From Escherichia coli (GTDB lineage Bacteria; Pseudomonadota; Gammaproteobacteria; Enterobacterales; Enterobacteriaceae), in the NCBI RefSeq assembly GCF_036507355.1, contig NZ_AP027877.1: 64,000 nt of DNA. One strand, written 5' to 3'. The translations under genes and the position numbers were made by a program. The notes under the pieces are model-generated. The model was not told the origin of the DNA. It made no database searches and saw only the letters and a list, made by a program, of their open reading frames with translations. Shown piece by piece: positions 15,738 to 43,201 of the stretch; the stretch's first letter is position 1, and each line of letters starts with the position of its first letter.

Positions 15738-16831
15738 TAACGTCCCTCAAAATCTATACGCGGATCGACCAGCGTATAGCTGATATCACTGACAATATTC
15801 AGCAGCAGGCCAATCAGGGTGAAAATATACAAGGTACCAAACATTACAGGATAATCGCGCGAGACGGTCGCTTCGTAGCCCAGTAAGCCAAGACCATTGA
15901 GTGAAAACATCACCTCAATCAGCAGCGAGCCGGTAAAAAACATGCTGATAAACGTCGCCGGAAAACCGGCAATCACCAGCAGCATGGCGTTGCGGAACAC
16001 ATGTTTCCAGAGAATATTTTTTTCACTTACCCCTTTCGCACGCGCAGTCACCACGTATTGCTTGCGCACTTCATCAAGGAATGAGTTTTTGGTCAGCATG
16101 GTCAGCGCCGCAAAGCCACCAATCACTGTCGCCAGCACCGGCAGCGTGATATGACACAGATAATCGGTGATTTTCTGATACCACGGCAGCGAATCAAAGT
16201 TAGCGGAAACCAGGCCGCGTAGAGGGAACAGGTCGAAATAGCTGCCGCCTGCGAAGAAGACAATCAGCAGGATGGCAAACAAAAAGGCCGGAATAGCGTA
16301 GCCGATGATGATAAATGCGCTACTCCAGACGTCAAAGCGGCTCCCATTATAAACAGCTTTGCGAATGCCTAACGGAATCGACACCAGATAGATAATCAGC
16401 GTGCTCCACAATCCGAGGATGATGGAAACCGGCAGACTGTCTTTAATCAGCGTCAGCACCGAGGCGCTGCGAAACAGGCTATCGCCAAAATCAAAGCGGA
16501 TATAGTCCCAGAGCATTTTGAAGTAACGTTCGTGGATCGGCTTATCGAAACCGTAGCGATGAGTGATCTCGGCGATCACTTCTGGATCTAATCCGCGTCC
16601 GCCACGGTAATTACTGTCGCTGATATTACCGACGCCCGTTTGCGCATGGCTGGCGCGAACGCCTTCACCGCCTGCGCCGGGTAATACTCCGGCATTACCA
16701 AACTCAATGGCGGCGATGGCCTGGTCGACCGGACCGCCAGGCGCAATTTGCACGATGAAAAAGTTGATAGTGATAATCGCCCATAACGTTGGGATCACCA
16801 GCAACAGACGGCGAATCAGATAAGCGCCCAT
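15737..16831 (-). CDS. yejB: ABC transporter permease YejB
   Basis: 364-aa ORF, DppB/OppB-like permease. Confidence 0.9.
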
Positions 16832-29599: not shown

Positions 29600-31291
29600 A
29601 TGAAAACGCTGCTGATTATTGACGCTAATCTCGGTCAGGCACGCGCCTATATGGCGAAGACCCTGCTGGGCGCGGCGGCGCGAAAAGCAAAACTGGAAAT
29701 CATCGACAATCCGAACGACGCAGAAATGGCGATTGTTCTCGGTGATTCCATCCCGAATGACAGCGCGCTGAACGGTAAAAATGTCTGGCTGGGCGATATT
29801 TCCCGGGCAGTTGCGCACCCTGAGCTGTTCCTGAGTGAAGCCAAAGGCCATGCGAAACCTTACACTGCGCCGGTCGCTGCGACAGCACCGGTTGCCGCCA
29901 GCGGTCCGAAACGCGTAGTTGCGGTGACTGCTTGCCCGACTGGCGTAGCACACACCTTTATGGCGGCTGAAGCCATTGAAACCGAAGCGAAAAAACGTGG
30001 CTGGTGGGTGAAAGTTGAAACCCGTGGTTCTGTTGGTGCGGGTAATGCAATCACCCCCGAAGAAGTAGCCGCAGCGGATCTGGTGATTGTGGCGGCAGAT
30101 ATCGAAGTGGATCTGGCGAAATTTGCTGGTAAACCGATGTATCGTACCTCTACCGGTCTGGCGCTGAAGAAAACCGCGCAGGAACTGGATAAAGCGGTTG
30201 CTGAAGCAACGCCGTATGAACCGGCGGGCAAAGCTCAAACGGCGACCTCTGAAGGTAAGAAAGAGAGTGCAGGCGCATACCGTCACTTGCTGACGGGCGT
30301 CTCTTACATGCTGCCGATGGTCGTTGCAGGTGGTCTGTGTATCGCGCTTTCTTTTGCTTTTGGTATCGAAGCGTTTAAAGAGCCGGGTACGTTGGCAGCG
30401 GCGCTGATGCAGATTGGTGGTGGTTCAGCCTTTGCGCTGATGGTGCCGGTACTGGCAGGTTACATTGCCTTCTCCATTGCCGATCGTCCGGGTCTCACGC
30501 CGGGTCTGATTGGCGGTATGCTGGCGGTCAGCACCGGTTCTGGCTTCATTGGCGGTATTATTGCGGGCTTCCTGGCTGGTTACATTGCGAAGTTAATCAG
30601 TACGCAACTGAAACTGCCACAGAGTATGGAGGCGCTGAAACCGATCCTGATCATTCCGCTAATTTCCAGTCTGGTGGTCGGTCTGGCGATGATCTACCTG
30701 ATCGGTAAACCGGTTGCTGGCATTCTCGAAGGGTTGACTCACTGGCTGCAGACCATGGGGACTGCGAATGCGGTTCTGCTGGGGGCGATCCTCGGTGGCA
30801 TGATGTGTACTGACATGGGCGGTCCGGTAAATAAAGCAGCGTACGCATTCGGTGTGGGTCTGCTGAGTACTCAAACCTATGGCCCGATGGCGGCGATTAT
30901 GGCGGCAGGTATGGTGCCACCGCTGGCAATGGGTCTGGCAACAATGGTGGCGCGTCGCAAATTCGACAAAGCGCAGCAGGAAGGTGGCAAAGCCGCTCTG
31001 GTTCTTGGTCTGTGCTTTATTTCGGAAGGTGCAATTCCGTTTGCTGCTCGTGATCCGATGCGTGTGCTGCCGTGCTGTATCGTGGGTGGGGCGCTGACTG
31101 GCGCAATCTCAATGGCGATTGGTGCGAAACTGATGGCACCGCACGGTGGTCTGTTTGTTCTGCTGATCCCTGGCGCTATTACGCCGGTACTGGGTTACCT
31201 GGTAGCAATTATTGCCGGTACGCTGGTGGCGGGTTTGGCCTATGCCTTCCTGAAACGTCCGGAAGTGGACGCAGTAGCGAAAGCCGCGTAA
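29600..31291 (+). CDS. fruA: PTS fructose-specific EIIB'BC
   Basis: 563-aa ORF with IIB domains (CPTGVAHT) and a polytopic IIC domain. Confidence 0.92.
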   Translation: MKTLLIIDANLGQARAYMAKTLLGAAARKAKLEIIDNPNDAEMAIVLGDSIPNDSALNGKNVWLGDISRAVAHPELFLSEAKGHAKPYTAPVAATAPVAASGPKRVVAVTACPTGVAHTFMAAEAIETEAKKRGWWVKVETRGSVGAGNAITPEEVAAADLVIVAADIEVDLAKFAGKPMYRTSTGLALKKTAQELDKAVAEATPYEPAGKAQTATSEGKKESAGAYRHLLTGVSYMLPMVVAGGLCIALSFAFGIEAFKEPGTLAAALMQIGGGSAFALMVPVLAGYIAFSIADRPGLTPGLIGGMLAVSTGSGFIGGIIAGFLAGYIAKLISTQLKLPQSMEALKPILIIPLISSLVVGLAMIYLIGKPVAGILEGLTHWLQTMGTANAVLLGAILGGMMCTDMGGPVNKAAYAFGVGLLSTQTYGPMAAIMAAGMVPPLAMGLATMVARRKFDKAQQEGGKAALVLGLCFISEGAIPFAARDPMRVLPCCIVGGALTGAISMAIGAKLMAPHGGLFVLLIPGAITPVLGYLVAIIAGTLVAGLAYAFLKRPEVDAVAKAA

Positions 31292-31615
31292 TAAAAGGTG
31301 TGTTACAGGGCAGAATTTTACTGCCCTGTATCATTGGATGAGCGCAAAGAGAATGACCGGTTTGTGAATGTAATTTTATGAATTTAAATGGTTTTATCTT
31401 TCAGTAGAAACCTGAAACGTTCATCAAACACTAAGGTTATTTCCTCAAGGGCAGATTCTTTTCTGCCCTTTTTTAGTGTTCATGTTCTGTGCATCCCGTC
31501 ACAAATTCCTCGCTTTTGTAATTCTGGCATTTAATCGCATTTTGTGAGCCTGCTCAAATCTGCCCGCTTTGCCTCTCTGGCGGCAATTTACTTTACGTAA
31601 AACATGCATACTATG

Positions 31616-31647
31616 AGCACATGTTTAAATATGAACACATGTTTAAA
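31616..31647. promoter_or_regulatory. Direct repeat gagcacatgtttaaa / gaacacatgtttaaa (17-bp period), a candidate operator upstream of psuK
   Basis: Two near-identical 15-mers, each containing the palindromes ACATGT and TTTAAA, 70-100 bp upstream of the psuK start. Confidence 0.35.
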
Positions 31648-31714
31648 CTGTCTTTGCAGTATCTATATTCTTGTGGATTGACAGGGTTGGTAATTTTTTA
31701 CCAGAGGACGTGCT

Positions 31715-32656
31715 ATGCGCGAAAAGGATTATGTCGTAATTATAGGCTCGGCGAATATTGATGTCGCCGGATATTCACATGAATCATTAAATTATGCGGA
31801 TTCAAATCCAGGTAAAATAAAATTTACGCCTGGTGGGGTAGGGCGCAATATTGCACAAAACCTGGCGTTGCTGGGTAATAAAGCCTGGCTACTGAGCGCC
31901 GTAGGCAGTGATTTTTATGGCCAATCGCTGCTAACGCAAACCAATCAATCTGGCGTTTATGTCGATAAATGCCTGATTGTGCCGGGAGAAAATACGTCGA
32001 GCTATTTATCATTACTCGATAATACCGGTGAAATGCTGGTTGCTATAAATGACATGAATATTAGCAACGCTATTACAGCTGAATATCTCGCACAGCACCG
32101 TGAATTTATTCAGAGGGCAAAGGTCATTGTCGCGGACTGTAATATCAGTGAAGAGGCACTGGCATGGATTCTGGATAATGCTGCCAACGTACCCGTATTT
32201 GTCGATCCGGTTTCAGCGTGGAAATGTGTCAAAGTGCGCGACCGTCTAAATCAGATCCACACTCTGAAGCCAAACCGCCTTGAAGCGGAAACACTGAGTG
32301 GGATTGCGCTGTCAGGGCGTGAAGATGTGGCAAAAGTTGCTGCCTGGTTCCATCAACATGGCCTGAACCGACTGGTATTGAGCATGGGCGGCGATGGCGT
32401 TTATTACAGCGATATCAGCGGTGAAAGTGGCTGGTCTGCGCCGATCAAAACCAATGTTATTAATGTTACCGGAGCGGGCGATGCCATGATGGCGGGACTT
32501 GCTTCGTGTTGGGTAGACGGAATGCCGTTTGCCGAATCTGTTCGTTTCGCACAGGGATGTTCGTCAATGGCGCTCTCCTGTGAATACACCAATAACCCCG
32601 ATTTATCGATTGCCAACGTTATATCGTTAGTGGAGAACGCAGAATGTCTGAATTAA
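31715..32656 (+). CDS. psuK: Pseudouridine kinase PsuK (YeiC), PfkB family
   Basis: 313-aa ORF with PfkB motifs (GGVGRN, TGAGDAM). Confidence 0.88.
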   Translation: MREKDYVVIIGSANIDVAGYSHESLNYADSNPGKIKFTPGGVGRNIAQNLALLGNKAWLLSAVGSDFYGQSLLTQTNQSGVYVDKCLIVPGENTSSYLSLLDNTGEMLVAINDMNISNAITAEYLAQHREFIQRAKVIVADCNISEEALAWILDNAANVPVFVDPVSAWKCVKVRDRLNQIHTLKPNRLEAETLSGIALSGREDVAKVAAWFHQHGLNRLVLSMGGDGVYYSDISGESGWSAPIKTNVINVTGAGDAMMAGLASCWVDGMPFAESVRFAQGCSSMALSCEYTNNPDLSIANVISLVENAECLN

Positions 32657-33582
32657 AAATTTCCCCTGAATTATTACAAATTTCCCCGGAAGTGCAGGAC
32701 GCTTTAAAAAACAAAAAACCGGTTGTGGCGCTGGAATCGACCATTATTTCTCACGGGATGCCGTTCCCACAAAATGCCCAGACCGCAATTGAAGTTGAAG
32801 AAACTATTCGTAAACAGGGCGCAGTACCTGCCACTATCGCCATTATTGGTGGCGTGATGAAAGTGGGTTTAAGCAAAGATGAAATTGAATTACTGGGTCG
32901 TGAAGGGCATAACGTGACCAAAGTTAGTCGTCGCGATTTACCTTTTGTTGTTGCCGCCGGAAAAAATGGCGCAACCACTGTGGCTTCAACGATGATTATT
33001 GCGGCGCTTGCCGGAATTAAAGTATTTGCCACCGGGGGAATTGGTGGTGTTCATCGCGGGGCGGAACATACCTTCGATATTTCTGCCGATTTGCAAGAAC
33101 TGGCAAATACTAATGTCACCGTTGTTTGTGCCGGGGCGAAATCTATTCTCGATTTAGGATTAACCACTGAGTATTTAGAAACCTTCGGTGTGCCGTTAAT
33201 TGGCTATCAGACTAAAGCGCTGCCTGCGTTTTTCTGCCGCACCAGCCCGTTTGACGTCAGCATTCGTCTCGACAGCGCCAGCGAAATTGCCCGTGCAATG
33301 GCGGTGAAATGGCAAAGCGGGCTGAACGGTGGCCTCGTGGTAGCGAACCCGATCCCGGAACAGTTTGCTATGCCGGAACACACTATCAATGCGGCGATCG
33401 ATCAGGCGGTAGCTGAAGCTGAAGCGCAGGGTGTTATTGGTAAAGAAAGTACGCCATTCCTGCTGGCGCGCGTTGCTGAGCTGACCGGCGGTGACAGCCT
33501 GAAATTCAACATCCAGCTGGTGTTCAACAACGCCATTCTGGCGAGCGAAATTGCCAAAGAATATCAGCGTCTCGCGGGTTAA
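32644..33582 (+). CDS. psuG: Pseudouridine-5'-phosphate glycosidase PsuG (YeiN)
   Basis: 312-aa ORF of the indigoidine-synthase-A-like family; 13-bp overlap with psuK. Confidence 0.88.
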   Translation: MSELKISPELLQISPEVQDALKNKKPVVALESTIISHGMPFPQNAQTAIEVEETIRKQGAVPATIAIIGGVMKVGLSKDEIELLGREGHNVTKVSRRDLPFVVAAGKNGATTVASTMIIAALAGIKVFATGGIGGVHRGAEHTFDISADLQELANTNVTVVCAGAKSILDLGLTTEYLETFGVPLIGYQTKALPAFFCRTSPFDVSIRLDSASEIARAMAVKWQSGLNGGLVVANPIPEQFAMPEHTINAAIDQAVAEAEAQGVIGKESTPFLLARVAELTGGDSLKFNIQLVFNNAILASEIAKEYQRLAG

Positions 33583-33675
33583 TTTCTGACGGGCAGAAAG
33601 CCGTCGCCCGTACTGATCATACATACCGAAACCTGGCGCTGACGCCGGGTTTACTGGCATGAAGGGAAAATCATT

Positions 33676-34926
33676 ATGGATATAATGAGAAGTGTTGTGG
33701 GGATGGTGGTGTTACTGGCAATAGCATTTCTGTTGTCGGTAAATAAAAAGAGCATCAGTTTGCGCACGGTTGGAGCCGCACTGCTGCTGCAAATCGCTAT
33801 TGGTGGCATCATGCTCTATTTTCCGCCGGGAAAATGGGCAGTAGAACAGGCGGCATTAGGCGTTCATAAAGTGATGTCTTACAGTGATGCCGGTAGCGCC
33901 TTCATTTTTGGTTCGCTGGTTGGGCCGAAAATGGATGTCCTCTTTGACGGTGCGGGTTTTATCTTCGCCTTTCGCGTACTTCCGGCGATTATCTTCGTCA
34001 CTGCGCTCATTAGTCTGCTGTACTACATTGGCGTGATGGGGCTGCTGATTCGCATCCTTGGCAGCATTTTCCAGAAAGCCCTCAACATCAGCAAAATCGA
34101 ATCTTTTGTCGCAGTCACCACTATTTTCCTCGGGCAAAATGAGATCCCGGCGATCGTTAAACCGTTTATCGATCGCATGAATCGAAACGAGTTGTTTACC
34201 GCAATTTGTAGCGGGATGGCGTCCATTGCTGGTTCGATGATGATTGGTTATGCCGGAATGGGCGTACCAATTGACTACCTGTTAGCGGCATCGCTGATGG
34301 CGATCCCCGGCGGTATTTTGTTTGCACGAATTCTTAGTCCAGCAACCGAGCTTTCGCAGGTCACGTTTGAAAATCTGTCGTTCAGCGAAACGCCGCCAAA
34401 AAGCTTTATCGAAGCAGCGGCGAGCGGTGCGATGACCGGGCTGAAAATCGCCGCCGGTGTGGCGACGGTGGTCATGGCGTTTGTCGCAATTATTGCGCTG
34501 ATTAATGGCATTATTGGCGGAATTGGCGGCTGGTTTGGTTTTGCCAATGCCTCTCTGGAAAGTATTTTTGGCTATGTGCTGGCACCGCTGGCGTGGATCA
34601 TGGGTGTGGACTGGAGTGATGCCAACCTTGCGGGTAGCCTGATTGGGCAGAAACTGGCGATTAACGAATTCGTCGCTTACCTGAGTTTCTCCCCATACCT
34701 GCAAACGGGCGGCACGCTGGAAGTGAAAACCATTGCGATTATCTCCTTTGCGCTTTGTGGTTTTGCTAACTTTGGTTCTATCGGTGTTGTCGTTGGGGCA
34801 TTTTCGGCTATTTCGCCAAAACGTGCTCCGGAAATCGCCCAGCTTGGTTTACGGGCGCTGGCAGCAGCAACGCTTTCCAACCTGATGAGCGCGACCATTG
34901 CCGGGTTCTTTATTGGTTTAGCTTGA
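33676..34926 (+). CDS. psuT: NupC-family nucleoside transporter PsuT (YeiM)
   Basis: 416-aa polytopic ORF; paralogue of nupX at about 80% identity. Confidence 0.88.
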   Translation: MDIMRSVVGMVVLLAIAFLLSVNKKSISLRTVGAALLLQIAIGGIMLYFPPGKWAVEQAALGVHKVMSYSDAGSAFIFGSLVGPKMDVLFDGAGFIFAFRVLPAIIFVTALISLLYYIGVMGLLIRILGSIFQKALNISKIESFVAVTTIFLGQNEIPAIVKPFIDRMNRNELFTAICSGMASIAGSMMIGYAGMGVPIDYLLAASLMAIPGGILFARILSPATELSQVTFENLSFSETPPKSFIEAAASGAMTGLKIAAGVATVVMAFVAIIALINGIIGGIGGWFGFANASLESIFGYVLAPLAWIMGVDWSDANLAGSLIGQKLAINEFVAYLSFSPYLQTGGTLEVKTIAIISFALCGFANFGSIGVVVGAFSAISPKRAPEIAQLGLRALAAATLSNLMSATIAGFFIGLA

Positions 34927-34993
34927 GTTTCATTGCCGGATGTACTCGCTTATTAAGCGTTGCATCCGGCAATCGCGCTATTGCAAATAATTT

Positions 34994-35653
34994 TTACTGC
35001 ATCATCCCGGAGAATTTATTCTCCGGGTCCATCTCCAGCGCCAGTCCTGACAACTGCTTTCTGTTTTTAATGAGATATCCTTTCTTGCTTTTAATTAATA
35101 AACCGTCGTGAATGAATTGCGCGAGAACATATAAAAGATGTCGATAAGAAACGCCTAAATACTCTGCCGCTTGCGTATGCTTTTCGTGATAAAGATCACC
35201 TTCTTGTGAGAGTAATATAAATGCTGCCAGGCGATTCACTAACGGAAATGATTGATTCTGAGTTAAAGAAACAATATTACGATAATTTTTATGACTTAAG
35301 GTGACGCAAAGTTTTCGTAAAAATAGGGTGTCGTTTAATAACAGCGGACGGTAATGTTTCATAGGGAGCGCAAGGCACCAACACTCTTCAATCGCCTGTA
35401 CTGCACGTGGTTCATGGTCTTTATCGATTAACTCAATCTCGCCAATAAAACAGGGGGCGGCAAAGAAATCGATCAGCGACACGCAACCATTAGCTAGCGT
35501 GGCGTAAAGCCTGGCGCGGCCTCGCGTCAGGTAAAACAGCCAGGACGGCTGTTGCCCTTCCTGCACAATGTAGTCACGCGCTAAAAAATGAAACAGCCGC
35601 GTATCGGCTGAAACATCCGTTAAAAAGCAATCCTTAAACGCGGATTCACTCAT
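34994..35653 (-). CDS. yeiL: CRP/FNR-family transcriptional regulator YeiL
   Basis: 219-aa ORF with a cNMP-binding-like fold and C-terminal HTH ([16 protein letters not shown]); start placed at [10 protein letters not shown]. Confidence 0.85.
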
Positions 35654-35705
35654 CAATTGCTGCTTAAGATCATTATTGTGGATTTCTTTCACGATGTTTA
35701 TCCGC

Positions 35706-35721
35706 TATGAGATTTCTCATA
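35706..35721. promoter_or_regulatory. Perfect 16-bp palindrome tatgagatttctcata in the divergent yeiL/rihB promoter region
   Basis: Perfect dyad about 55 bp upstream of the yeiL start; a candidate site for a CRP/FNR-type dimer. Confidence 0.35.
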
Positions 35722-35821
35722 TTTAGCATACGTACGCTGTTGTTAAGATTCAATCATCGGCCCGGTCGAATTTTCTTTGCTGTAGAAAAAATAACGCAAC
35801 TGGAAACAGAGGAAATAAACA

Positions 35822-36763
35822 ATGGAAAAGAGAAAAATTATTCTGGATTGTGATCCGGGTCATGATGATGCTATTGCAATGATGATGGCAGCGAAACATC
35901 CGGCAATAGATTTATTAGGCATCACTATTGTAGCGGGTAATCAGACGCTTGATAAAACATTAATTAATGGCCTGAATGTTTGCCAGAAACTGGAGATTAA
36001 TGTTCCGGTTTATGCGGGGATGCCGCAACCCATTATGCGTCAACAAATCGTTGCCGATAATATTCACGGTGAAACCGGACTGGATGGCCCGGTATTCGAG
36101 CCGCTGACCCGCCAGGCAGAAAGTACCCACGCGGTGAAATACATCATTGATACCCTGATGGCAAGCGATGGCGATATCACTCTGGTGCCGGTTGGTCCGT
36201 TGTCAAATATCGCGGTGGCAATGCGTATGCAATCCGCAATCCTGCCCAAAATCCGTGAAATTGTGCTAATGGGCGGCGCTTACGGTACAGGCAACTTCAC
36301 GCCATCTGCCGAGTTCAACATCTTTGCTGACCCGGAAGCCGCACGCGTGGTGTTCACCTCCGGCGTTCCATTAGTGATGATGGGCCTCGATCTTACCAAC
36401 CAGACCGTTTGCACCCCGGACGTAATTGTTCGGATGGAAAGGGCAGGCGGCCCTGCCGGAGAGCTATTCAGCGACATCATGAACTTCACTCTCAAAACGC
36501 AGTTCGAAAACTACGGCCTGGCTGGCGGCCCGGTGCACGACGCCACCTGCATCGGTTATCTGATTAACCCTGATGGCATTAAAACCCAGGAGATGTACGT
36601 CGAAGTGGACGTCAACAGTGGCCCTTGCTATGGGCGTACCGTCTGCGACGAGCTGGGCGTTCTTGGCAAGCCCGCTAATACCAAAGTCGGCATCACTATT
36701 GATACCGACTGGTTCTGGGGCTTAGTCGAAGAGTGCGTGCGCGGCTACATCAAAACCCATTAA
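35822..36763 (+). CDS. rihB: Pyrimidine-specific ribonucleoside hydrolase RihB (YeiK)
   Basis: 313-aa ORF with the inosine-uridine nucleoside hydrolase DxDxxxDD motif ([11 protein letters not shown]). Confidence 0.9.
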
Positions 36764-36973
36764 GTGTTGATAACAAGCCGGGTCAGTATCGCAAAATGCA
36801 GGCCCGGCTATTTCTGAGGGGCAGAAAGCCGTCGCCCAATATGACATGAAGAGATAATAACTATGGATGTCATGAGAAGTGTTCTGGGAATGGTGGTATT
36901 GCTGACGATTGCGTTTTTGGTGATGCTGCCAACTTACTGATTTAGTGTATGATGGTGTTTTTGAGGTGCTCCA

Positions 36974-37249
36974 GTGGCTTCTGTTTCTATCAGCTGTCCC
37001 TCCTGTTCAGCTACTGACGGGGTGGTGCGTAACGGCAAAAGCACCGCCGGACATCAGCGCTATCTCTGCTCTCACTGCCGTAAAACATGGCAACTGCAGT
37101 TCACTTACACCGCTTCTCAACCCGGTACGCACCAGAAAATCATTGATATGGCCATGAATGGCGTTGGATGCCGGGCAACAGCCCGCATTATGGGCGTTGG
37201 CCTCAACACGATTTTACGTCACTTAAAAAACTCAGGCCGCAGTCGGTAA
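36974..37249 (+). CDS. insA: IS1 InsA
   Basis: Identical 91-aa translation. Confidence 0.9.
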
Positions 37250-37671
37250 CCTCGCGCATACAGCCGGGCAGTGACGTCATCGTCTGCGCGGAAATGGACG
37301 AACAGTGGGGCTATGTCGGGGCTAAATCGCGCCAGCGCTGGCTGTTTTACGCGTATGACAGGCTCCGGAAGACGGTTGTTGCGCACGTATTCGGTGAACG
37401 CACGATGGCGACGCTGGGGCGTCTTATGAGCCTGCTGTCACCCTTTGACGTGGTGATATGGATGACGGATGGCTGGCCGCTGTATGAATCCCGCCTGAAG
37501 GGAAAGCTGCACGTAATCAGCAAGCGATATACGCAGCGAATTGAGCGGCATAACCTGAATCTGAGGCAGCACCTGGCACGGCTGGGACGGAAGTCGCTGT
37601 CGTTCTCAAAATCGGTGGAGCTGCATGACAAAGTCATCGGGCATTATCTGAACATAAAACACTATCAATAA
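37168..37671 (+). CDS. insB: IS1 InsB
   Basis: Identical 167-aa translation. Confidence 0.88.
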
Positions 37672-38945
37672 GTTGGAGTCATTACCTGCGTTTTTACTGT
37701 CAGTAAACAAGAAGAAGATCAGCCTGCGTACCGTTGGCGCGGCGTTAGTGTTACAGGTTGTGATTGGCGGGATTATGCTTTGGTTACCGCCAGGGCGTTG
37801 GGTCGCTGAAAAAGTCGCTTTTGGCGTGCATAAAGTGATGGCGTACAGCGATGCAGGTAGCGCATTTATCTTCGGTTCGCTGGTCGGGCCGAAAATGGAC
37901 ACGCTGTTTGATGGCGCAGGATTTATCTTTGGTTTCAGGGTGTTACCGGCAATTATCTTCGTCACCGCGCTGGTGAGTATTCTCTATTACATCGGTGTGA
38001 TGGGGATCTTAATTCGCATTCTCGGCGGTATATTCCAGAAAGCATTAAATATCAGCAAGATCGAGTCATTCGTCGCGGTCACTACCATTTTCCTCGGGCA
38101 AAACGAAATTCCGGCGATCGTCAAACCCTTTATCGATCGTCTGAATCGCAATGAATTATTTACAGCGATTTGTAGTGGCATGGCCTCGATTGCTGGTTCG
38201 ACAATGATTGGTTACGCCGCACTGGGCGTGCCTGTGGAATATTTGCTGGCGGCATCGTTAATGGCGATCCCAGGCGGGATCTTGTTTGCCCGCCTGCTAA
38301 GCCCGGCTATGGAATCTTCGCAGGTTTCTTTTAATAACCTCTCTTTCACCGAAACACCGCCAAAAAGCATTATTGAAGCTGCCGCGACAGAGGCAATGAC
38401 CGGGCTGAAAATCGCCGCAGGTGTGGCGACAGTAGTGATGGCATTTGTCGCCATCATTGCGTTAATTAACGGTATTATCGGCGGCGTTGGCGGCTGGTTT
38501 GGTTTTGAACATGCCTCGCTGGAATCCATTTTAGGTTACCTGCTGGCCCCACTGGCGTGGGTGATGGGTGTTGACTGGAGTGATGCGAATCTTGCCGGGA
38601 GTTTGATTGGTCAGAAACTGGCAATAAATGAATTTGTCGCTTATCTCAATTTCTCACCCTATCTGCAAACGGCTGACAAGCTGGATGCTAAAACCGTGGC
38701 GATTATTTCCTTCGCGTTGTGCGGTTTCGCTAACTTTGGTTCTATCGGGGTGGTGGTGGGGGCGTTTTCTGCGGTTGCGCCACACCGTGCGCCGGAAATC
38801 GCCCAACTTGGTTTACGCGCGCTGGCGGCGGCGACACTTTCTAATCTGATGAGTGCCACCATTGCCGGGTTCTTTATTGGTTTAGCGTAGTGTGCGATTT
38901 ATGAGCCGGATAATATGCGGTCAAGCGTCGAATCCGGCAACATTG

Positions 38946-40034
38946 TTACACCATTGGCATTAATGAAAGCGCGTTATCGGCAGACAAGGTAGGGTTATTT
39001 AAGCTGCCGCTGGCGCGTGAAATTGCCGCGCAGGCCATCGCAAAACGGGCGCTGTCACGGAAATTGTTTCCTTCCAGAAAGCTATATACCAGGCCCGCCA
39101 TAAAACCATCGTCAGCACCAAAACTGTCTACTGTCGTATGCGCTGGTGCGGTCAGCAAAAATTGTTCTCCATCCTTTTCGCTGCAATAAACTGACTCATC
39201 GGGCAAATAAACAAACAGTTGCTGAACACCTTGCTGATGCAACGCATTCACTGCAGCATTACGGTCAGCATCGCTGGTGATCGCCTGTCCCCATAAAATT
39301 TCCAGCTCCGGTAAAGTGGGTTTCAGGGTGTGAATATGCGCCAGCCAGTGTTTGATTTTGCCCGCTTTGAATTCTGAAACGGTATCGACAAACACCGGGA
39401 TCTCATCAGCGAGGGTAAAGACCCATTCCAGCGCCTCGGCTGTCAGGTTGCAATCAGCCAGTACCACGCCCGCATGACGAAGTAAATCGCGCGACCCGTT
39501 CAGTAGTTGCGGTGTCAACTGTTCCAGCAGATGGGTATCGTTAATCGCCAGCACGGTTTGATCGTCTCGATTGGCAATTGCCAGATACGTCGATGTGCTT
39601 TGACCATGCAAACGAACGCAGCCGGAGACATTCACGCCGGCACGGCGCGTTTCTTCCAGGAGCATTTCGCCATAAAAGTCATCGCCAATCACTGAAAGCA
39701 AATGGACGTCGCGGCCTAACAGCGCCAGATTGTGGGCGATATTGCGTCCAACGCCGCCTGCCGAGCAATGAATTGTACCGGGATGAGAAGCCGATTGCGG
39801 GTAACGGATATCCGCCATCCCGCGAATATCCATATTGATTGTCCCCACCACTACGCAGTATTCCTGCTCGGTGAGAATGTAACCTTTGCCTTTAATCCGG
39901 CCTTTGCGCATTAAATCCATAATATGCGCCGCAACGCGCGAACGGCTGATTTGCAGCATGTCCGCAATTTCGTTCTGCTGAATCAGCGGGTTACGCCGTA
40001 AAATTGCAAGGATCTCCTTTTCCCGGTTATTCAT
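38946..40034 (-). CDS. yeiI: Fusion protein YeiI: N-terminal winged-HTH domain plus PfkB-family carbohydrate/nucleoside kinase domain
   Basis: 362-aa ORF: N-terminus MNNREKEILAILRRNPLIQQNEIADMLQISRSRVAAHIMDL (HTH), then PfkB motifs similar to PsuK (GGVGRN, GADDGFMAG). Confidence 0.85.
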   Translation of the reverse strand: MNNREKEILAILRRNPLIQQNEIADMLQISRSRVAAHIMDLMRKGRIKGKGYILTEQEYCVVVGTINMDIRGMADIRYPQSASHPGTIHCSAGGVGRNIAHNLALLGRDVHLLSVIGDDFYGEMLLEETRRAGVNVSGCVRLHGQSTSTYLAIANRDDQTVLAINDTHLLEQLTPQLLNGSRDLLRHAGVVLADCNLTAEALEWVFTLADEIPVFVDTVSEFKAGKIKHWLAHIHTLKPTLPELEILWGQAITSDADRNAAVNALHQQGVQQLFVYLPDESVYCSEKDGEQFLLTAPAHTTVDSFGADDGFMAGLVYSFLEGNNFRDSARFAMACAAISRASGSLNNPTLSADNALSLMPMV

Positions 40035-40036
40035 CT

Positions 40037-40894
40037 TCAGGCTACCGCTTTTTCAGTTTGTTGCGCTTTCAGCCAGGCGATCTCTTCTGCCCAGATATCC
40101 GGGTTGATGGTTTCGAGGATCAGCGGAATGCCGTCGAAACGGTCGTCCTGCATGATCCAGCGGAACGCATCATGACCGATATTGCCTTCACCGAGGCTAT
40201 GATGGCGGTCAACGCGGCTGCCAAAGGTGCTTTTCGCATCGTTAAGGTGCATCCCGCGCAGATACTTAAAGCCGACAATACGGGCAAAATCAGCGAACGT
40301 TTTCTCGCATTCGGCTGGAGTACGCAAATCATACCCGGCAGCGAAAGCATGGCAGGTATCAATGCAGACGCCGACACGGGATTTATCTTCCACGCCGTCG
40401 ATAATCGCCGCGAGATGTTCGAATTTAAACCCTAAGTTACTGCCCTGACCGGCGGTGTTTTCAATCACCGCGGTCACACCTTGAGTTTTATCCAGCGCAA
40501 TGTTGATGGATTCGGCAATACGCGCAAGGCAATCCTCTTCTGAAATCTGCATCAGATGGCTGCCAGGGTGGAAGTTGAGCAAAGAAAGCCCCAGCTGTTC
40601 GCAACGCTGCATTTCATCTATAAAGGCATCGCGCGATTTTTCCAGAGCTTCAGTGACCGGATGTCCGAGGTTAATCAGATAGCTGTCGTGGGGAAGAATT
40701 TGCGCCGATGTGTAGTGATATTTTTCACAGGCGGCTTTGAATTCATCGATGGTTTGCGTCGTGAGCGGTGCGGCACGCCACTGACGTTGGTTTTTGGTGA
40801 ACAAGGCAAACGCGGTTGCGTCGATTTCGGCGGCGCGAATTGCGGCATTTGCCAGACCGCCAGCAGCACTAACGTGCGCTCCAATGTATTTCAT
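40037..40894 (-). CDS. nfo: Endonuclease IV (AP endonuclease)
   Basis: 285-aa [24 protein letters not shown]; TIM-barrel Nfo family. Confidence 0.92.
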
Positions 40895-40967
40895 GCGAGG
40901 ACTCCTGTTAAACCCGCTGGAGGAAAACGGTAATGATAGCGGGTTAACAGGAGCAAGATGTAGTGGT

Positions 40968-42017
40968 TTATGCGATGACGCTTTGAATCACATAGTTAAT
41001 CGCACCACCACCAACAATCAGCCAGGCAAACAGTACCAGTGCCATCAGCAGAGGTTTCGCCCCGGCTTTTTTCAGCGCGCTGACGTGAGTGGTCAGACCC
41101 AGCGCCGCCATCGCCATTGCCAGCAGGAAGGTATCCAGCGTTACCAGCATGTTCACCACGCTCTGCGGTAACAGGTGGAACGAGTTAAAGATGGCAACTA
41201 CGATGAACAAGATGGCAAACCACGGAATAGTGATTTTGCTTTTCTCGCCGCTGTTCGCCCCAGACAGCTGTTTAACACGCGCCGCCAGCAGGATGAGGAA
41301 CGGAGCCAGCATCATCACGCGCAGCATTTTGGAAATAACTGCTGCGTTTTCCGCATCCGGGCTGATGGCATGACCTGCCGCCACCACCTGCGCCACTTCG
41401 TGCACAGTAGAACCAATGTAGATACCGAAAGTTTCCGGACTAAACCATTGAGACATCAGCGGATATATCGCCGGGTAGAGGAAAATCGCGACGGTCCCGA
41501 AGATAACAACGGTTGCAACAGCCACGGTTACTTTACTGGCTTCCGCTTTCACTACCGGCTCAGTCGCCAGTACCGCGGCAGCACCACAAATACTGCTACC
41601 GGCACCGATCAACCAGCTGGTGTGCTTATCCAGACCAAACACTTTCTGCCCCAGGAAGCAAGCCAGCAGGAAGGTACTGGACAGCGTCAGCACGTCAATG
41701 ATGATCCCACTGATACCGACATCGGCAATTTGCGAGAACGTCAGACGGAAGCCATAAAGAATGATACCCAGACGTAATAAATATTGCTTGGCAAACAGCA
41801 CACCACCGTCACAGCTTTTCCAGATGTGCGGATAGATGGTGTTGCCTAAAACCATCCCCAACAAGATTGCGAGGGTGAGGGCACTAAACCCGGCACCCGC
41901 AACCGCGGGAATGGAACCACCCCACAGGGCGACCCCGGTGATAACTGCACTCAGGGCTAACCCCGGAATAAAATGCCACAGTGTACGATGTTGTTTCTGT
42001 AAGGTGATATTCGTCAT
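40968..42017 (-). CDS. yeiH: UPF0324 inner membrane protein YeiH
   Basis: 349-aa polytopic ORF; divergent from yeiE. Confidence 0.85.
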
Positions 42018-42115
42018 AACCCTCTCCTTTAACCGGGCATAAGGTTACGACTAACTGGTTTAAAAATAAAATTGATTATATATTTATAATTAATCTTTAT
42101 AAGTGGTAAGCGACT

Positions 42116-42997
42116 ATGCACATCACCCTCCGGCAGTTGGAAGTTTTTGCAGAAGTATTGAAAAGTGGATCAACCACCCAGGCGTCGGTGATGCTGGCGT
42201 TGTCGCAATCAGCAGTGAGCGCAGCCTTGACCGACCTGGAAGGGCAACTTGGCGTGCAACTGTTTGATCGCGTGGGGAAAAGACTGGTTGTTAATGAACA
42301 CGGGCGGCTGCTCTATCCGCGTGCGTTGGCATTGCTTGAACAGGCGGTTGAAATCGAACAACTGTTTCGCGAAGACAACGGCGCGATTCGTATCTATGCC
42401 AGTAGTACCATCGGTAACTACATTCTGCCTGCAGTTATCGCCCGTTATCGCCATGATTATCCGCAGTTGCCGATTGAACTTAGCGTTGGGAACAGCCAGG
42501 ACGTGATGCAAGCGGTGCTGGATTTCCGCGTTGATATTGGCTTTATTGAAGGACCGTGCCACAGCACTGAAATCATTTCTGAACCGTGGCTGGAAGACGA
42601 GCTGGTGGTTTTCGCCGCGCCGACTTCGCCGTTGGCCCGTGGTCCGGTCACCTTAGAACAGCTGGCCGCTGCGCCGTGGATCCTGCGTGAACGCGGCTCC
42701 GGCACGCGGGAGATTGTCGATTATCTGTTGCTGTCACATTTACCGAAGTTTGAGATGGCGATGGAATTAGGTAACTCCGAGGCAATCAAACATGCGGTGC
42801 GTCATGGGTTGGGAATTAGTTGCCTGTCGCGACGGGTGATTGAAGACCAATTGCAGGCAGGCACATTAAGTGAAGTTGCGGTCCCTCTGCCGCGCCTGAT
42901 GCGTACGTTGTGGCGTATACATCATCGGCAAAAACACCTTTCCAACGCGCTACGGCGCTTTCTGGACTATTGCGATCCCGCGAATGTACCGTGTTAA
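42116..42997 (+). CDS. yeiE: LysR-family transcriptional regulator YeiE
   Basis: 293-aa ORF with N-terminal [27 protein letters not shown] and a LysR substrate-binding domain. Confidence 0.88.
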
Positions 42998-43201
42998 GTT
43001 GCTGTACAAGAACATGCTGGTGCTGTGTCGATTTCGTGACGCAGCGCCCTCAGCATGCATTCGCCAGAAAAGAGATTGGCTGCTTTACTTATAATCCCTG
43101 GGCGATCATGAAGGTGTCTTATAACCGTGTATTTCTGCCGGAAGGATTGCCAATCGTCTGCTACAATCGCGCCTCATTTTTTAGATGGATAGCATTTTTG
43201 T

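Follow-up and report, generated by a model that had tools for sequence, protein, structure and literature searches.

In enzyme-repressor fusions such as NadR and BirA, a metabolic enzyme or enzyme-like domain acts as the ligand sensor of a helix-turn-helix (HTH) repressor. The ROK family comprises both repressors (Mlc, NagC), which have lost kinase activity, and sugar kinases, which have no HTH. The gene considered here, yeiI, lies on the minus strand of a 64,000-nucleotide stretch of Escherichia coli DNA (RefSeq GCF_036507355.1, contig NZ_AP027877.1), called the window below. Its product has the architecture of an enzyme-derived one-component repressor, in which an enzyme domain that binds a ligand is joined to a domain that binds DNA. 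On comparative grounds we propose, with confidence and doubt in about equal measure, that YeiI is a pseudouridine-responsive repressor acting in trans on the psuK-psuG-psuT operon (psuKGT) of Enterobacteriaceae. The ROK split parallels the proposed division between YeiI and the pseudouridine kinase PsuK, although NadR, BirA and the ROK proteins differ from YeiI in their folds and ligands.

Three further systems are comparable. The archaeal riboflavin kinase RbkR joins, like YeiI, a kinase to a winged HTH (wHTH); it controls the genes of its own substrate's pathway and was found by comparative genomics of operators (PMC5397151). However, its kinase fold is unrelated (CTP-dependent riboflavin kinase), it is archaeal, its activity is kept, and no split into enzyme and sensor paralogues is described. 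E. coli PsuK/PUKI (YeiC; structures 7vtd, 7vkp and 7vva) has in common with YeiI the PfkB fold, 38-39% sequence identity, the ribose and Ser/Asn/Lys contacts and the genomic neighbourhood. In contrast to PsuK, YeiI carries an additional 55-residue wHTH, has a remodelled ATP/Mg site and sits outside the psuG operon. Finally, HTH-fused pseudouridine kinases of Serratia, Yersinia, Photorhabdus, Shewanella, Vibrio and Firmicutes show the two-domain architecture of YeiI, its recognition-helix residues and often the same type of palindrome upstream. They have canonical kinase motifs and are psuG-linked, whereas YeiI is a paralogue of its own, encoded alongside a PsuK that lacks the HTH. These proteins are annotated as “PfkB family carbohydrate kinase” or “winged helix-turn-helix transcriptional regulator”, and our literature searches found no study of HTH-PfkB regulators, of HTH-fused pseudouridine kinases or of a psuKGT regulator. 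YeiI itself was still termed uncharacterised in the 2025 literature and figures in lists of hypothetical transcription factors. A “YeiI” named in a paper on LeuO was set aside as an apparent slip, probably for the LysR-type regulator YeiE; YeiI is not a LysR-type protein.

The yeiI reading frame is unbroken over positions 38,946 to 40,034, as judged from the open reading frame list and the translation, and the gene was found in 5422 of 5426 complete E. coli genomes. A preliminary description of the window had recognized an open reading frame joining an HTH to a PfkB kinase. This holds, with the addition of the minus strand, which had been left unstated; the peptide then quoted, EILAILRRNPLIQQNEIADMLQISRSRVAAHIMDL, corresponds to YeiI residues 7-41. 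In Pfam, HTH_24, a winged helix of the Lrp/AsnC-MarR-like type, is matched at residues 1-48 (E 1.2e-10, 41.2 bits for a gathering cutoff of 21.9) and PfkB (PF00294) at residues 58-348 (E 4.1e-68, 230.4 bits for a cutoff of 25.8). In NCBIfam, the YeiI equivalog NF007416 (“sugar kinase”) is matched over residues 1-362 with 812 bits (cutoff 561), and YeiI stays below the cutoff of the PsuK equivalog NF007355 (254.2 bits vs. 540). The paralogy to PsuK that had been proposed for the kinase domain is borne out by 39% identity over 307 residues (E 2e-76). The end of psuK is 6.3 kb from yeiI, including a 0.77-kb IS1. In an AlphaFold2 model built on 77 homologues (predicted local distance difference test score 90.9), three helices (residues 3-14, 20-27 and 31-43) and a β-hairpin wing (47-54) are followed by a short linker and then by the kinase domain. 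The latter superposes on the E. coli PsuK/PUKI structures with a template modelling score of 0.95 relative to the target and a root-mean-square deviation of 1.8 Å. The top Foldseek matches are 7vtd and 7vkp, and ribokinases superpose too. An HTH is present in none of the solved structures matching the model, and the isolated HTH, used as a phmmer query against the PDB, returned generic, non-significant HTH matches and no close solved homologue. The kinase domain, described earlier as complete, is complete as regards its fold, but three motifs of its ATP/Mg site are non-canonical, as detailed below.

The two-domain organization is widespread. An HTH is present in 112 of the 139 closest cluster representatives at 50% identity. 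We examined 80 genomic loci, mapping the window genes onto each; 65 of them are fused loci outside the YeiI clade. In 61 of these 65, the fused gene stands directly upstream of psuG on the same strand, with psuT often next; the four exceptions are second copies in Xenorhabdus. The linkage is seen in Morganella, Serratia, Yersinia, Photorhabdus, Xenorhabdus, Gilliamella and Pasteurellaceae, and further in Neisseriales (Aquitalea, Vogesella), Shewanella, Vibrio, Aeromonas, Rhodoferax and several Firmicutes. Because of this position upstream of psuG, the fusion can be taken as the pseudouridine kinase of those genomes, and it is presumably both enzyme and regulator. Enterobacteriaceae, together with Brenneria and Affinibrenneria, carry instead a duplicated pair, made up of an HTH-less psuK and an HTH-bearing yeiI.

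In the Enterobacteriaceae, the pair is arranged in the order yeiH> nfo> yeiI> <psuT <psuG <psuK, as seen in Citrobacter, Enterobacter, Kluyvera, Klebsiella, Leclercia, Phytobacter, Yokenella and Entomohabitans. yeiI and psuT are directly adjacent in Enterobacter, Kluyvera, Klebsiella, Phytobacter, one of two Leclercia genomes and most Citrobacter. A rihB-yeiL-nupX block is inserted between them in some genera only, and the second Leclercia genome (L014) has it beyond psuKGT, on the far side. In a Brenneria sp. and in Affinibrenneria, the arrangement yeiI> <psuT <psuG <psuK occurs in unrelated surroundings devoid of nfo, rihB and nupX. Thus, in each of three genomic contexts, yeiI is always convergent to psuT-psuG-psuK, whether or not nfo or rihB/nupX is present. 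As the linkage persists without either neighbour, the conserved partner of yeiI is psuKGT and not rihB-nupX.

Upstream of the fused genes of many proteobacteria recurs an AAACA-N2-TGTTT palindrome, often in the form CAAACA-NN-TGTTTG. Of the 65 fused loci counted above, 31 have an exact AAACANNTGTTT within 400 bp upstream of the fused gene, and these represent at least six families. The palindromes are often paired, 18-20 bp apart, just past the -10 element (19 bp in Shewanella). In the HTH-psuK promoters of Serratia, Yersinia and Photorhabdus, a CRP-like site, CTTTACT and the -10 element are followed by AAACgtaTGTTT and, 18 bp further on, by AAACAagTGTCC just before the ATG. Morganella has the layout of CTTTACT and a downstream site, and Firmicutes have two related sites past the -10 element. 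The promoters of HTH-less psuK genes are built in the same way. Indeed, 15 aligned psuK promoters (Enterobacteriaceae and one Brenneria) show conserved blocks amid diverged DNA, namely TGTGA-N6-TCAnA, TTTACTTT, a -10 element and two GAACA-yr-TGTTy palindromes whose starts are 18 bp apart. From these elements, the transcription start of psuK in the window is predicted at about position 31,621. A position weight matrix (PWM) trained solely on sites from other families gave its best score in the whole window, 13.3, at the second of the two predicted operators. Among 17 related loci, the top match of the locus falls inside the psuK promoter in 12, and the Klebsiella psuK promoter has scores of 21.4 and 14.5. 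No comparable match was found upstream of rihB or nupX within the window. In three operons with a non-fused psuK-psuG pair and without adjacent yeiI, no palindrome was found within 330 bp upstream, the genomes having been inspected up to 6 kb from psuK. The predicted operators persist at HTH-less psuK, in loci where no protein other than YeiI has the HTH in question. It is because these operators stayed at the psuK start and because YeiI alone has the matching HTH that we propose it as the psuKGT repressor.

Some candidate sites were discarded. A strict pattern, CAAACWNNWGTTTG, with up to two mismatches gave matches at chance level and none at psuK, so the core RAACANNTGTTY and the PWM were needed. 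PWM matches in coding regions (positions 15,995, 39,206 and 42,356) were treated as chance; one of these lies within yeiI itself (39,206-39,223, score 10.7, AATAAACAAACAGTTGCT). Nothing resembling the operator was found ahead of yeiI in Brenneria or Affinibrenneria, and autoregulation of yeiI is therefore not supported. In Morganella, Photorhabdus and Xenorhabdus (L016, L020, L033, L034), an extra distal palindrome of the same type, added to the proximal sites where these exist, lies about 275-290 bp upstream of HTH-psuK, which suggests a second promoter or DNA looping.

Conservation is uneven along YeiI. Among YeiI genera, the HTH is 85-91% identical vs. 64-80% for the kinase domain, and between YeiI and the HTH-PsuK proteins of Serratia and Yersinia the values are 69-73% vs. 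48-50%. Compared with fused kinases overall, the HTH of YeiI is 53-73% identical. At the recognition helix, R31, S32, V34, A35, H37 and I38 each reach at least 90% conservation in a set of 77 YeiI and HTH-PsuK proteins. Between two E. coli yeiI alleles, the HTH has a ratio of nonsynonymous to synonymous substitution rates (dN/dS) of 0.05, and the kinase domain one of 0.11. In a neighbour-joining tree, computed without bootstraps, YeiI is the long-branch sister of a group containing the HTH-PsuK of Enterobacterales, Pasteurellaceae and Gilliamella together with the PsuK of Enterobacteriaceae, and the YeiI and PsuK subtrees mirror one another.

The alleles compared above belong to two deeply diverged E. 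coli haplotypes of yeiI, psuK, psuG and psuT (31,715-34,926 and 38,946-40,034 in the window vs. L082 10,001-16,404). The synonymous divergence (dS) between haplotypes is 0.96 for yeiI, 1.44 for psuK, 0.61 for psuG and 0.50 for psuT, whereas the neighbouring nfo has 0.077. Ancient polymorphism or introgression may be the origin of the two haplotypes. The second yeiI allele (80-90% nucleotide identity) is found in about 2,000 of 5,426 complete E. coli genomes; its product is about 84% identical to the K-12 type and equally far from Citrobacter or Kluyvera YeiI. psuK was undetectable by megablast in 1,209 of the 5,426 genomes.

The published nucleoside contacts of PsuK (PMC9061257, PMC9247573) were transferred to YeiI by way of a YeiI-PsuK alignment. 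The ribose ligands Asn67, Asp69 and Asn98 are retained, as are the base contacts Tyr150, Asn165, Asn196 and Lys223 and the partner-loop Ser83, the reader of the pseudouridine N1. The hallmarks Ser30, Asn143 and Lys170 of PsuK correspond to Ser83, Asn196 and Lys223 of YeiI and are invariant or nearly so family-wide. In the same alignment, YeiI also retains the catalytic Asp309 as well as Asp217 and Glu243. In E. coli PUKI, the proposed catalytic base is Asp256 (PMC9061257). Near the base, the YeiI clade differs from PsuK and the fused kinases at two positions, Met114 of PsuK being replaced by Thr (Thr167 in YeiI) and its lid-loop Asp29 by Ala or Ser (Ala82 in YeiI).

The ATP/Mg side looks different. 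In PsuK, Asn187 of the NxxE motif is the proposed Mg2+ ligand (PMC9247573). At this position, the YeiI clade has Thr (Ala in one member), whereas all 65 fused proteins outside the clade have Asn; the Glu of the motif is retained throughout the clade except in the Ala-bearing member, which has Asp. The small ATP loop, defined in PMC9247573 and PMC7797080 and assigned to YeiI by alignment, reads [YC]L[PEKD]D[EDH][SA] in 16 of 16 YeiI-clade rows of our census, and xxGxxG is kept in PsuK and in 59 of 66 rows outside the clade. In all YeiI-clade proteins, Asp replaces the Gly that precedes the catalytic Asp309, and Affinibrenneria reads GADE. At both the NxxE and the TGAGD motif, all members of the clade differ from all fused kinases of the locus set outside it, and the small-loop glycines are lost clade-wide. 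From the sequence, the pseudouridine pocket of YeiI is kept and the ATP/Mg side is remodelled. Because this half of the active site is remodelled clade-wide, YeiI probably phosphorylates poorly or not at all. The idea that the fusion couples phosphorylation to regulation, put forward in the preliminary description, thus becomes doubtful for YeiI. The Asn-to-Thr change in NxxE was dropped as a lone argument for a dead kinase, as P0235, which has KPTLDE and an intact GAGD, is a psuG-linked operon kinase.

The most economical scenario for these observations is the following. An HTH-psuK gene, for a kinase that presumably regulated itself, would have been duplicated before the divergence of the Enterobacteriaceae. 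The operon copy would have lost its HTH and stayed an enzyme, PsuK, while the yeiI copy would have kept the HTH and the pseudouridine pocket, its site of phosphoryl transfer drifting towards a different state that is now conserved. The operators would have remained at the psuK transcription start. Dimers of YeiI would bind both palindromes over this start (31,615-31,644), blocking a weak, CRP-assisted promoter. Pseudouridine would then enter the YeiI pocket formed by Ser83' of the partner, Asn196, Lys223, Asn67, Asp69, Asn98, Tyr150 and Asn165. In PsuK, closure of the dimer on pseudouridine via Ser30 was shown experimentally (PMC9061257). A similar Ser-mediated closure in YeiI would move the HTH domains and free the DNA, so that YeiI would sense pseudouridine without consuming it.

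A recurrent adaptive mutation bears on the position of the promoter. An A>C change at position 2257444, in the psuK/fruA spacer, arose repeatedly in the gut of many mice and during long-term stationary-phase evolution. By our own coordinate conversion (NC_000913.2), it falls at position 31,589 of the window, the third T of the -35 element, which changes from TTTACT to TTGACT. This mapping uses an offset of +1978 bp to NC_000913.3, which we take to be the difference between the MG1655 sequence versions. One of the evolution papers describes the A>C mutation as lying in the psuK promoter and ties changes in the spacer to altered psuK expression. These papers independently support the position of the psuK promoter.

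Several points weigh against YeiI as the psuKGT repressor. No loss-of-function mutations in yeiI were found in the main text or the examined supplements of the evolution studies. With a simple repressor, yeiI knock-outs should offer an easier route to derepression, unless the inducer was present or the weak -35 element was limiting. In E. coli, linkage between the yeiI and psuK alleles is not strict. Operator 1 is the weaker PWM match in E. coli and Enterobacter, some apparent sites (Gilliamella, Pasteurellaceae) overlap the ribosome-binding site, and the spacing differs in Aeromonas. For a wHTH dimer, a distance of only 7 bp between half-site centres is unusual, and another transcription factor could be the binder of the psuK palindromes. 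As for the sensor part, the TxxE of P0235 belongs to a psuG-linked kinase, and YeiI itself keeps Asp309 and Glu243.

The last points would fit an active isozyme, that is, a kinase for pseudouridine or a close C-nucleoside whose HTH is vestigial or autoregulatory, another factor occupying the psuK palindromes. Such an enzyme would account for the retention of Asp309, Glu243, Asp217 and the entire nucleoside pocket, as well as for the purifying selection on the kinase domain indicated by its dN/dS; the TxxE variant P0235 is its operon's kinase, and a machine-learning annotation predicts EC 2.7.1.83 for YeiI. However, psuK mutants are unable to use pseudouridine, as the work of Preumont (2008) is cited in PMC12506659, so YeiI is no substitute for PsuK. 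The HTH is also the most conserved part of YeiI, whereas the phosphate site has lost GxxG and gained acidic residues in every clade row of the census. The predicted operators, in addition, persist exactly where PsuK lost its HTH, in loci where YeiI is the sole bearer of that HTH. On balance, an isozyme seems unlikely to us.

The same evidence, together with gene order, bears on the module proposed in the preliminary description, in which yeiI, rihB and nupX would serve the salvage of an unidentified, possibly modified, nucleoside. YeiI would then be an active kinase-regulator controlling rihB and nupX. yeiI does adjoin nupX and rihB in the window and in K-12, the changes to Thr167 and Ala82 near the base pocket could shift specificity, and P0271, a catalytically dead HTH-PfkB protein, is encoded next to a nucleoside hydrolase gene. 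But yeiI is convergent with nupX, on the strand opposite to rihB-nupX, and most genera have neither rihB nor nupX between yeiI and psuT. nupX is missing from E. ruysiae and from a major E. coli haplotype and is disrupted by IS1 here, while the rihB-yeiL-nupX block moves independently and brings along a regulator, likely YeiL. The Brenneria and Affinibrenneria loci without rihB and nupX, and the lack of a comparable PWM match upstream of rihB or nupX in the window, undercut the pairing further. All three pseudouridine-recognition residues are kept along with the ribose ligands, which speaks against a different nucleoside. We therefore regard this module as very improbable. Of the earlier proposal, the idea of a sensor-regulator gains indirect support from comparative genomics, with psuKGT and not rihB-nupX as its probable target. 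The least probable alternative, in our view, links YeiI with nfo in an oxidative-stress or DNA-repair response, for example through sensing or phosphorylation of damaged nucleosides, the proximity to psuKGT being historical. It takes its appeal from the 0-2 bp separating the nfo stop from the yeiI start in 12 of 14 YeiI-clade loci, suggestive of co-transcription. Against it, yeiI stands beside psuTGK without nfo in Brenneria sp. and Affinibrenneria, the pocket residues are of the pseudouridine kinase type, and the fused relatives are psuG-linked and never nfo-linked.

The coordinates of the features discussed are collected in the table.

Table. Features of yeiI and of its predicted target operon in the window (residue numbers refer to YeiI).
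Feature	Position	Strand	Basis or remark
yeiI coding sequence, wHTH-PfkB fusion, 362 residues	38946..40034	minus	Open reading frame list and translation; E. coli annotation; NCBIfam NF007416
N-terminal winged-helix domain, residues 1-55	39870..40034	minus	Pfam HTH_24, AlphaFold2
Recognition helix, about residues 31-43, RSRVAAHIMDLMR	within 39870..40034	minus	AlphaFold2
PfkB (ribokinase-like) domain, residues 58-348, nearest to pseudouridine kinase	38991..39863	minus	Pfam, PsuK identity, Foldseek
KPTLPE (residues 238-243), NxxE reads TxxE	39306..39323	minus	Alignment to PsuK KPN187RLE190
YLPDES (residues 276-281), at the position of the PsuK small ATP loop SMGGDG, both glycines lost	39192..39209	minus	Alignment
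FGADD (residues 305-309), altered TGAGD	39108..39122	minus	Alignment and census
Putative CRP-like site TGTGAGCCTGCTCAAA, centre about -70.5 from the inferred start	31543..31558	+	Promoter alignment
psuK -35 element, TTTACT	31587..31592	+	15 psuK promoters and the HTH-psuK promoters of Serratia, Yersinia, Photorhabdus and Morganella
psuK -10 element, TACTAT, 16-bp spacer	31609..31614	+	Conserved TAnnAT; position inferred from -35
Predicted operator 1, GAGCA-CA-TGTTT, GAGCACATGTTT, overlaps the inferred start	31615..31626	+	Promoter alignment; half-sites shared with the palindromes of HTH-psuK promoters in other families
Predicted operator 2, GAACA-CA-TGTTT, GAACACATGTTT, starts 18 bp after the start of operator 1	31633..31644	+	PWM
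psuK (PsuK without HTH)	31715-32656	+	Predicted target operon
psuG	32644-33582	+	Predicted target operon
psuT	33676-34926	+	Predicted target operon
nfo (endonuclease IV), stop 2 bp before the yeiI ATG	40037..40894	minus	Open reading frame positions

The gene order in the window is fruBKA (+), psuK-psuG-psuT (+), yeiL (-), rihB (+), nupX (+, split by IS1), yeiI (-), nfo (-) and yeiH (-). Given the short gap between them, yeiI is probably co-transcribed with nfo in Enterobacteriaceae. Peaks of RpoD were observed by genomic SELEX (systematic evolution of ligands by exponential enrichment) at yeiH>nfo and nfo>yeiI (PMC3946193). A consensus promoter and terminator scan around yeiI-nfo gave output at the level of shuffled sequences and was uninformative. 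The rihB, yeiL and psuT-like nupX genes always travel jointly as a block (34,994-38,890 in the window; L002, L011, L014, L015). nupX is about 80% identical to psuT at the DNA level and resembles a psuT duplicate. In this genome, nupX (ATG 36,863, stop 38,890) is a pseudogene, broken within codon 19 by an IS1 of 768 bp (36,919-37,686; insA 36,974-37,249, insB 37,168-37,671), with the target duplication TGCGTTTTT at 36,910-36,918 and 37,687-37,695. As a single contiguous match, the nupX-IS1 junction was found in none of the complete E. coli genomes searched, the nearest cases consisting of three joined pieces. An Rfam search at E <= 1 over 30,000-43,000 gave one sub-threshold match (E 0.15), unrelated to the psuT and nupX leaders, which thus contain no known RNA element. 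The 55-bp spacer between the convergent stops of nupX and yeiI carries an inverted repeat, GCCGGAT-N20-ATCCGGC (38,905-38,938), which may be a bidirectional terminator or an element like the repetitive extragenic palindromic (REP) sequences.

Other members of the family were noted beyond the psuG-linked kinases. Xenorhabdus has a second HTH-PfkB paralogue of 355 residues, away from psuG (L041, L042, L044, L045), with an exact CAAACA-NN-TGTTTG about 280 bp upstream. Several HTH-PfkB clusters (P0241, P0271, P0284, P0300, P0306, P0347) have no catalytic Asp, with GAAS, GTSG, GAGT, GVGT or GASS instead, and in sequence they look like pure pseudokinase regulators, a precedent within the family for the role proposed for YeiI. 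Among them, the P0271 gene (L089 180-1292) stands upstream of an operon that encodes a nucleoside hydrolase along with an unknown protein, a PRAI-like protein and an Fe-alcohol dehydrogenase, and two PWM sites 20 bp apart lie in the intergenic spacer (L089 1377-1414). Several cases with non-canonical catalytic motifs resemble frameshifted or chimeric proteins. An enrichment of non-canonical catalytic motifs among HTH-fused proteins was considered and dropped, as the difference (25 of 112 vs. 2 of 27) is not significant (Fisher p = 0.10).

YeiI is among the remaining E. coli K-12 genes without an assigned function, and the present analysis supplies a specific hypothesis for it, comprising a target operon, two 12-bp operators, an inducer and a likely loss of catalysis. 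The survey of fused loci points to a dual function, as enzyme and regulator, for most bacterial pseudouridine kinases, a matter that the structural papers on PsuK/PUKI do not discuss. More tentatively, and with the balance of our judgement still against it, the wHTH-PfkB proteins may form a large family of nucleoside-responsive repressors in which the first enzyme of a pathway is its own sensor, the two roles having been split in Enterobacteriaceae between PsuK as enzyme and YeiI as pseudokinase sensor. On this reading, YeiI might also pair with PsuK via the shared β-clasp dimer interface. A regulator of psuKGT would be relevant to pseudouridine-overproducing strains for mRNA manufacture, whose engineering involves psuK and psuG. 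Adaptation in the mouse gut and in long-term stationary phase has repeatedly struck the psuK promoter, and knowledge of its regulator would aid the interpretation of these experiments. If true, the split between PsuK and YeiI would provide a clean natural example of enzyme-repressor subfunctionalisation, and would give a function to an E. coli y-gene controlling a locus under recurrent selection in the gut.

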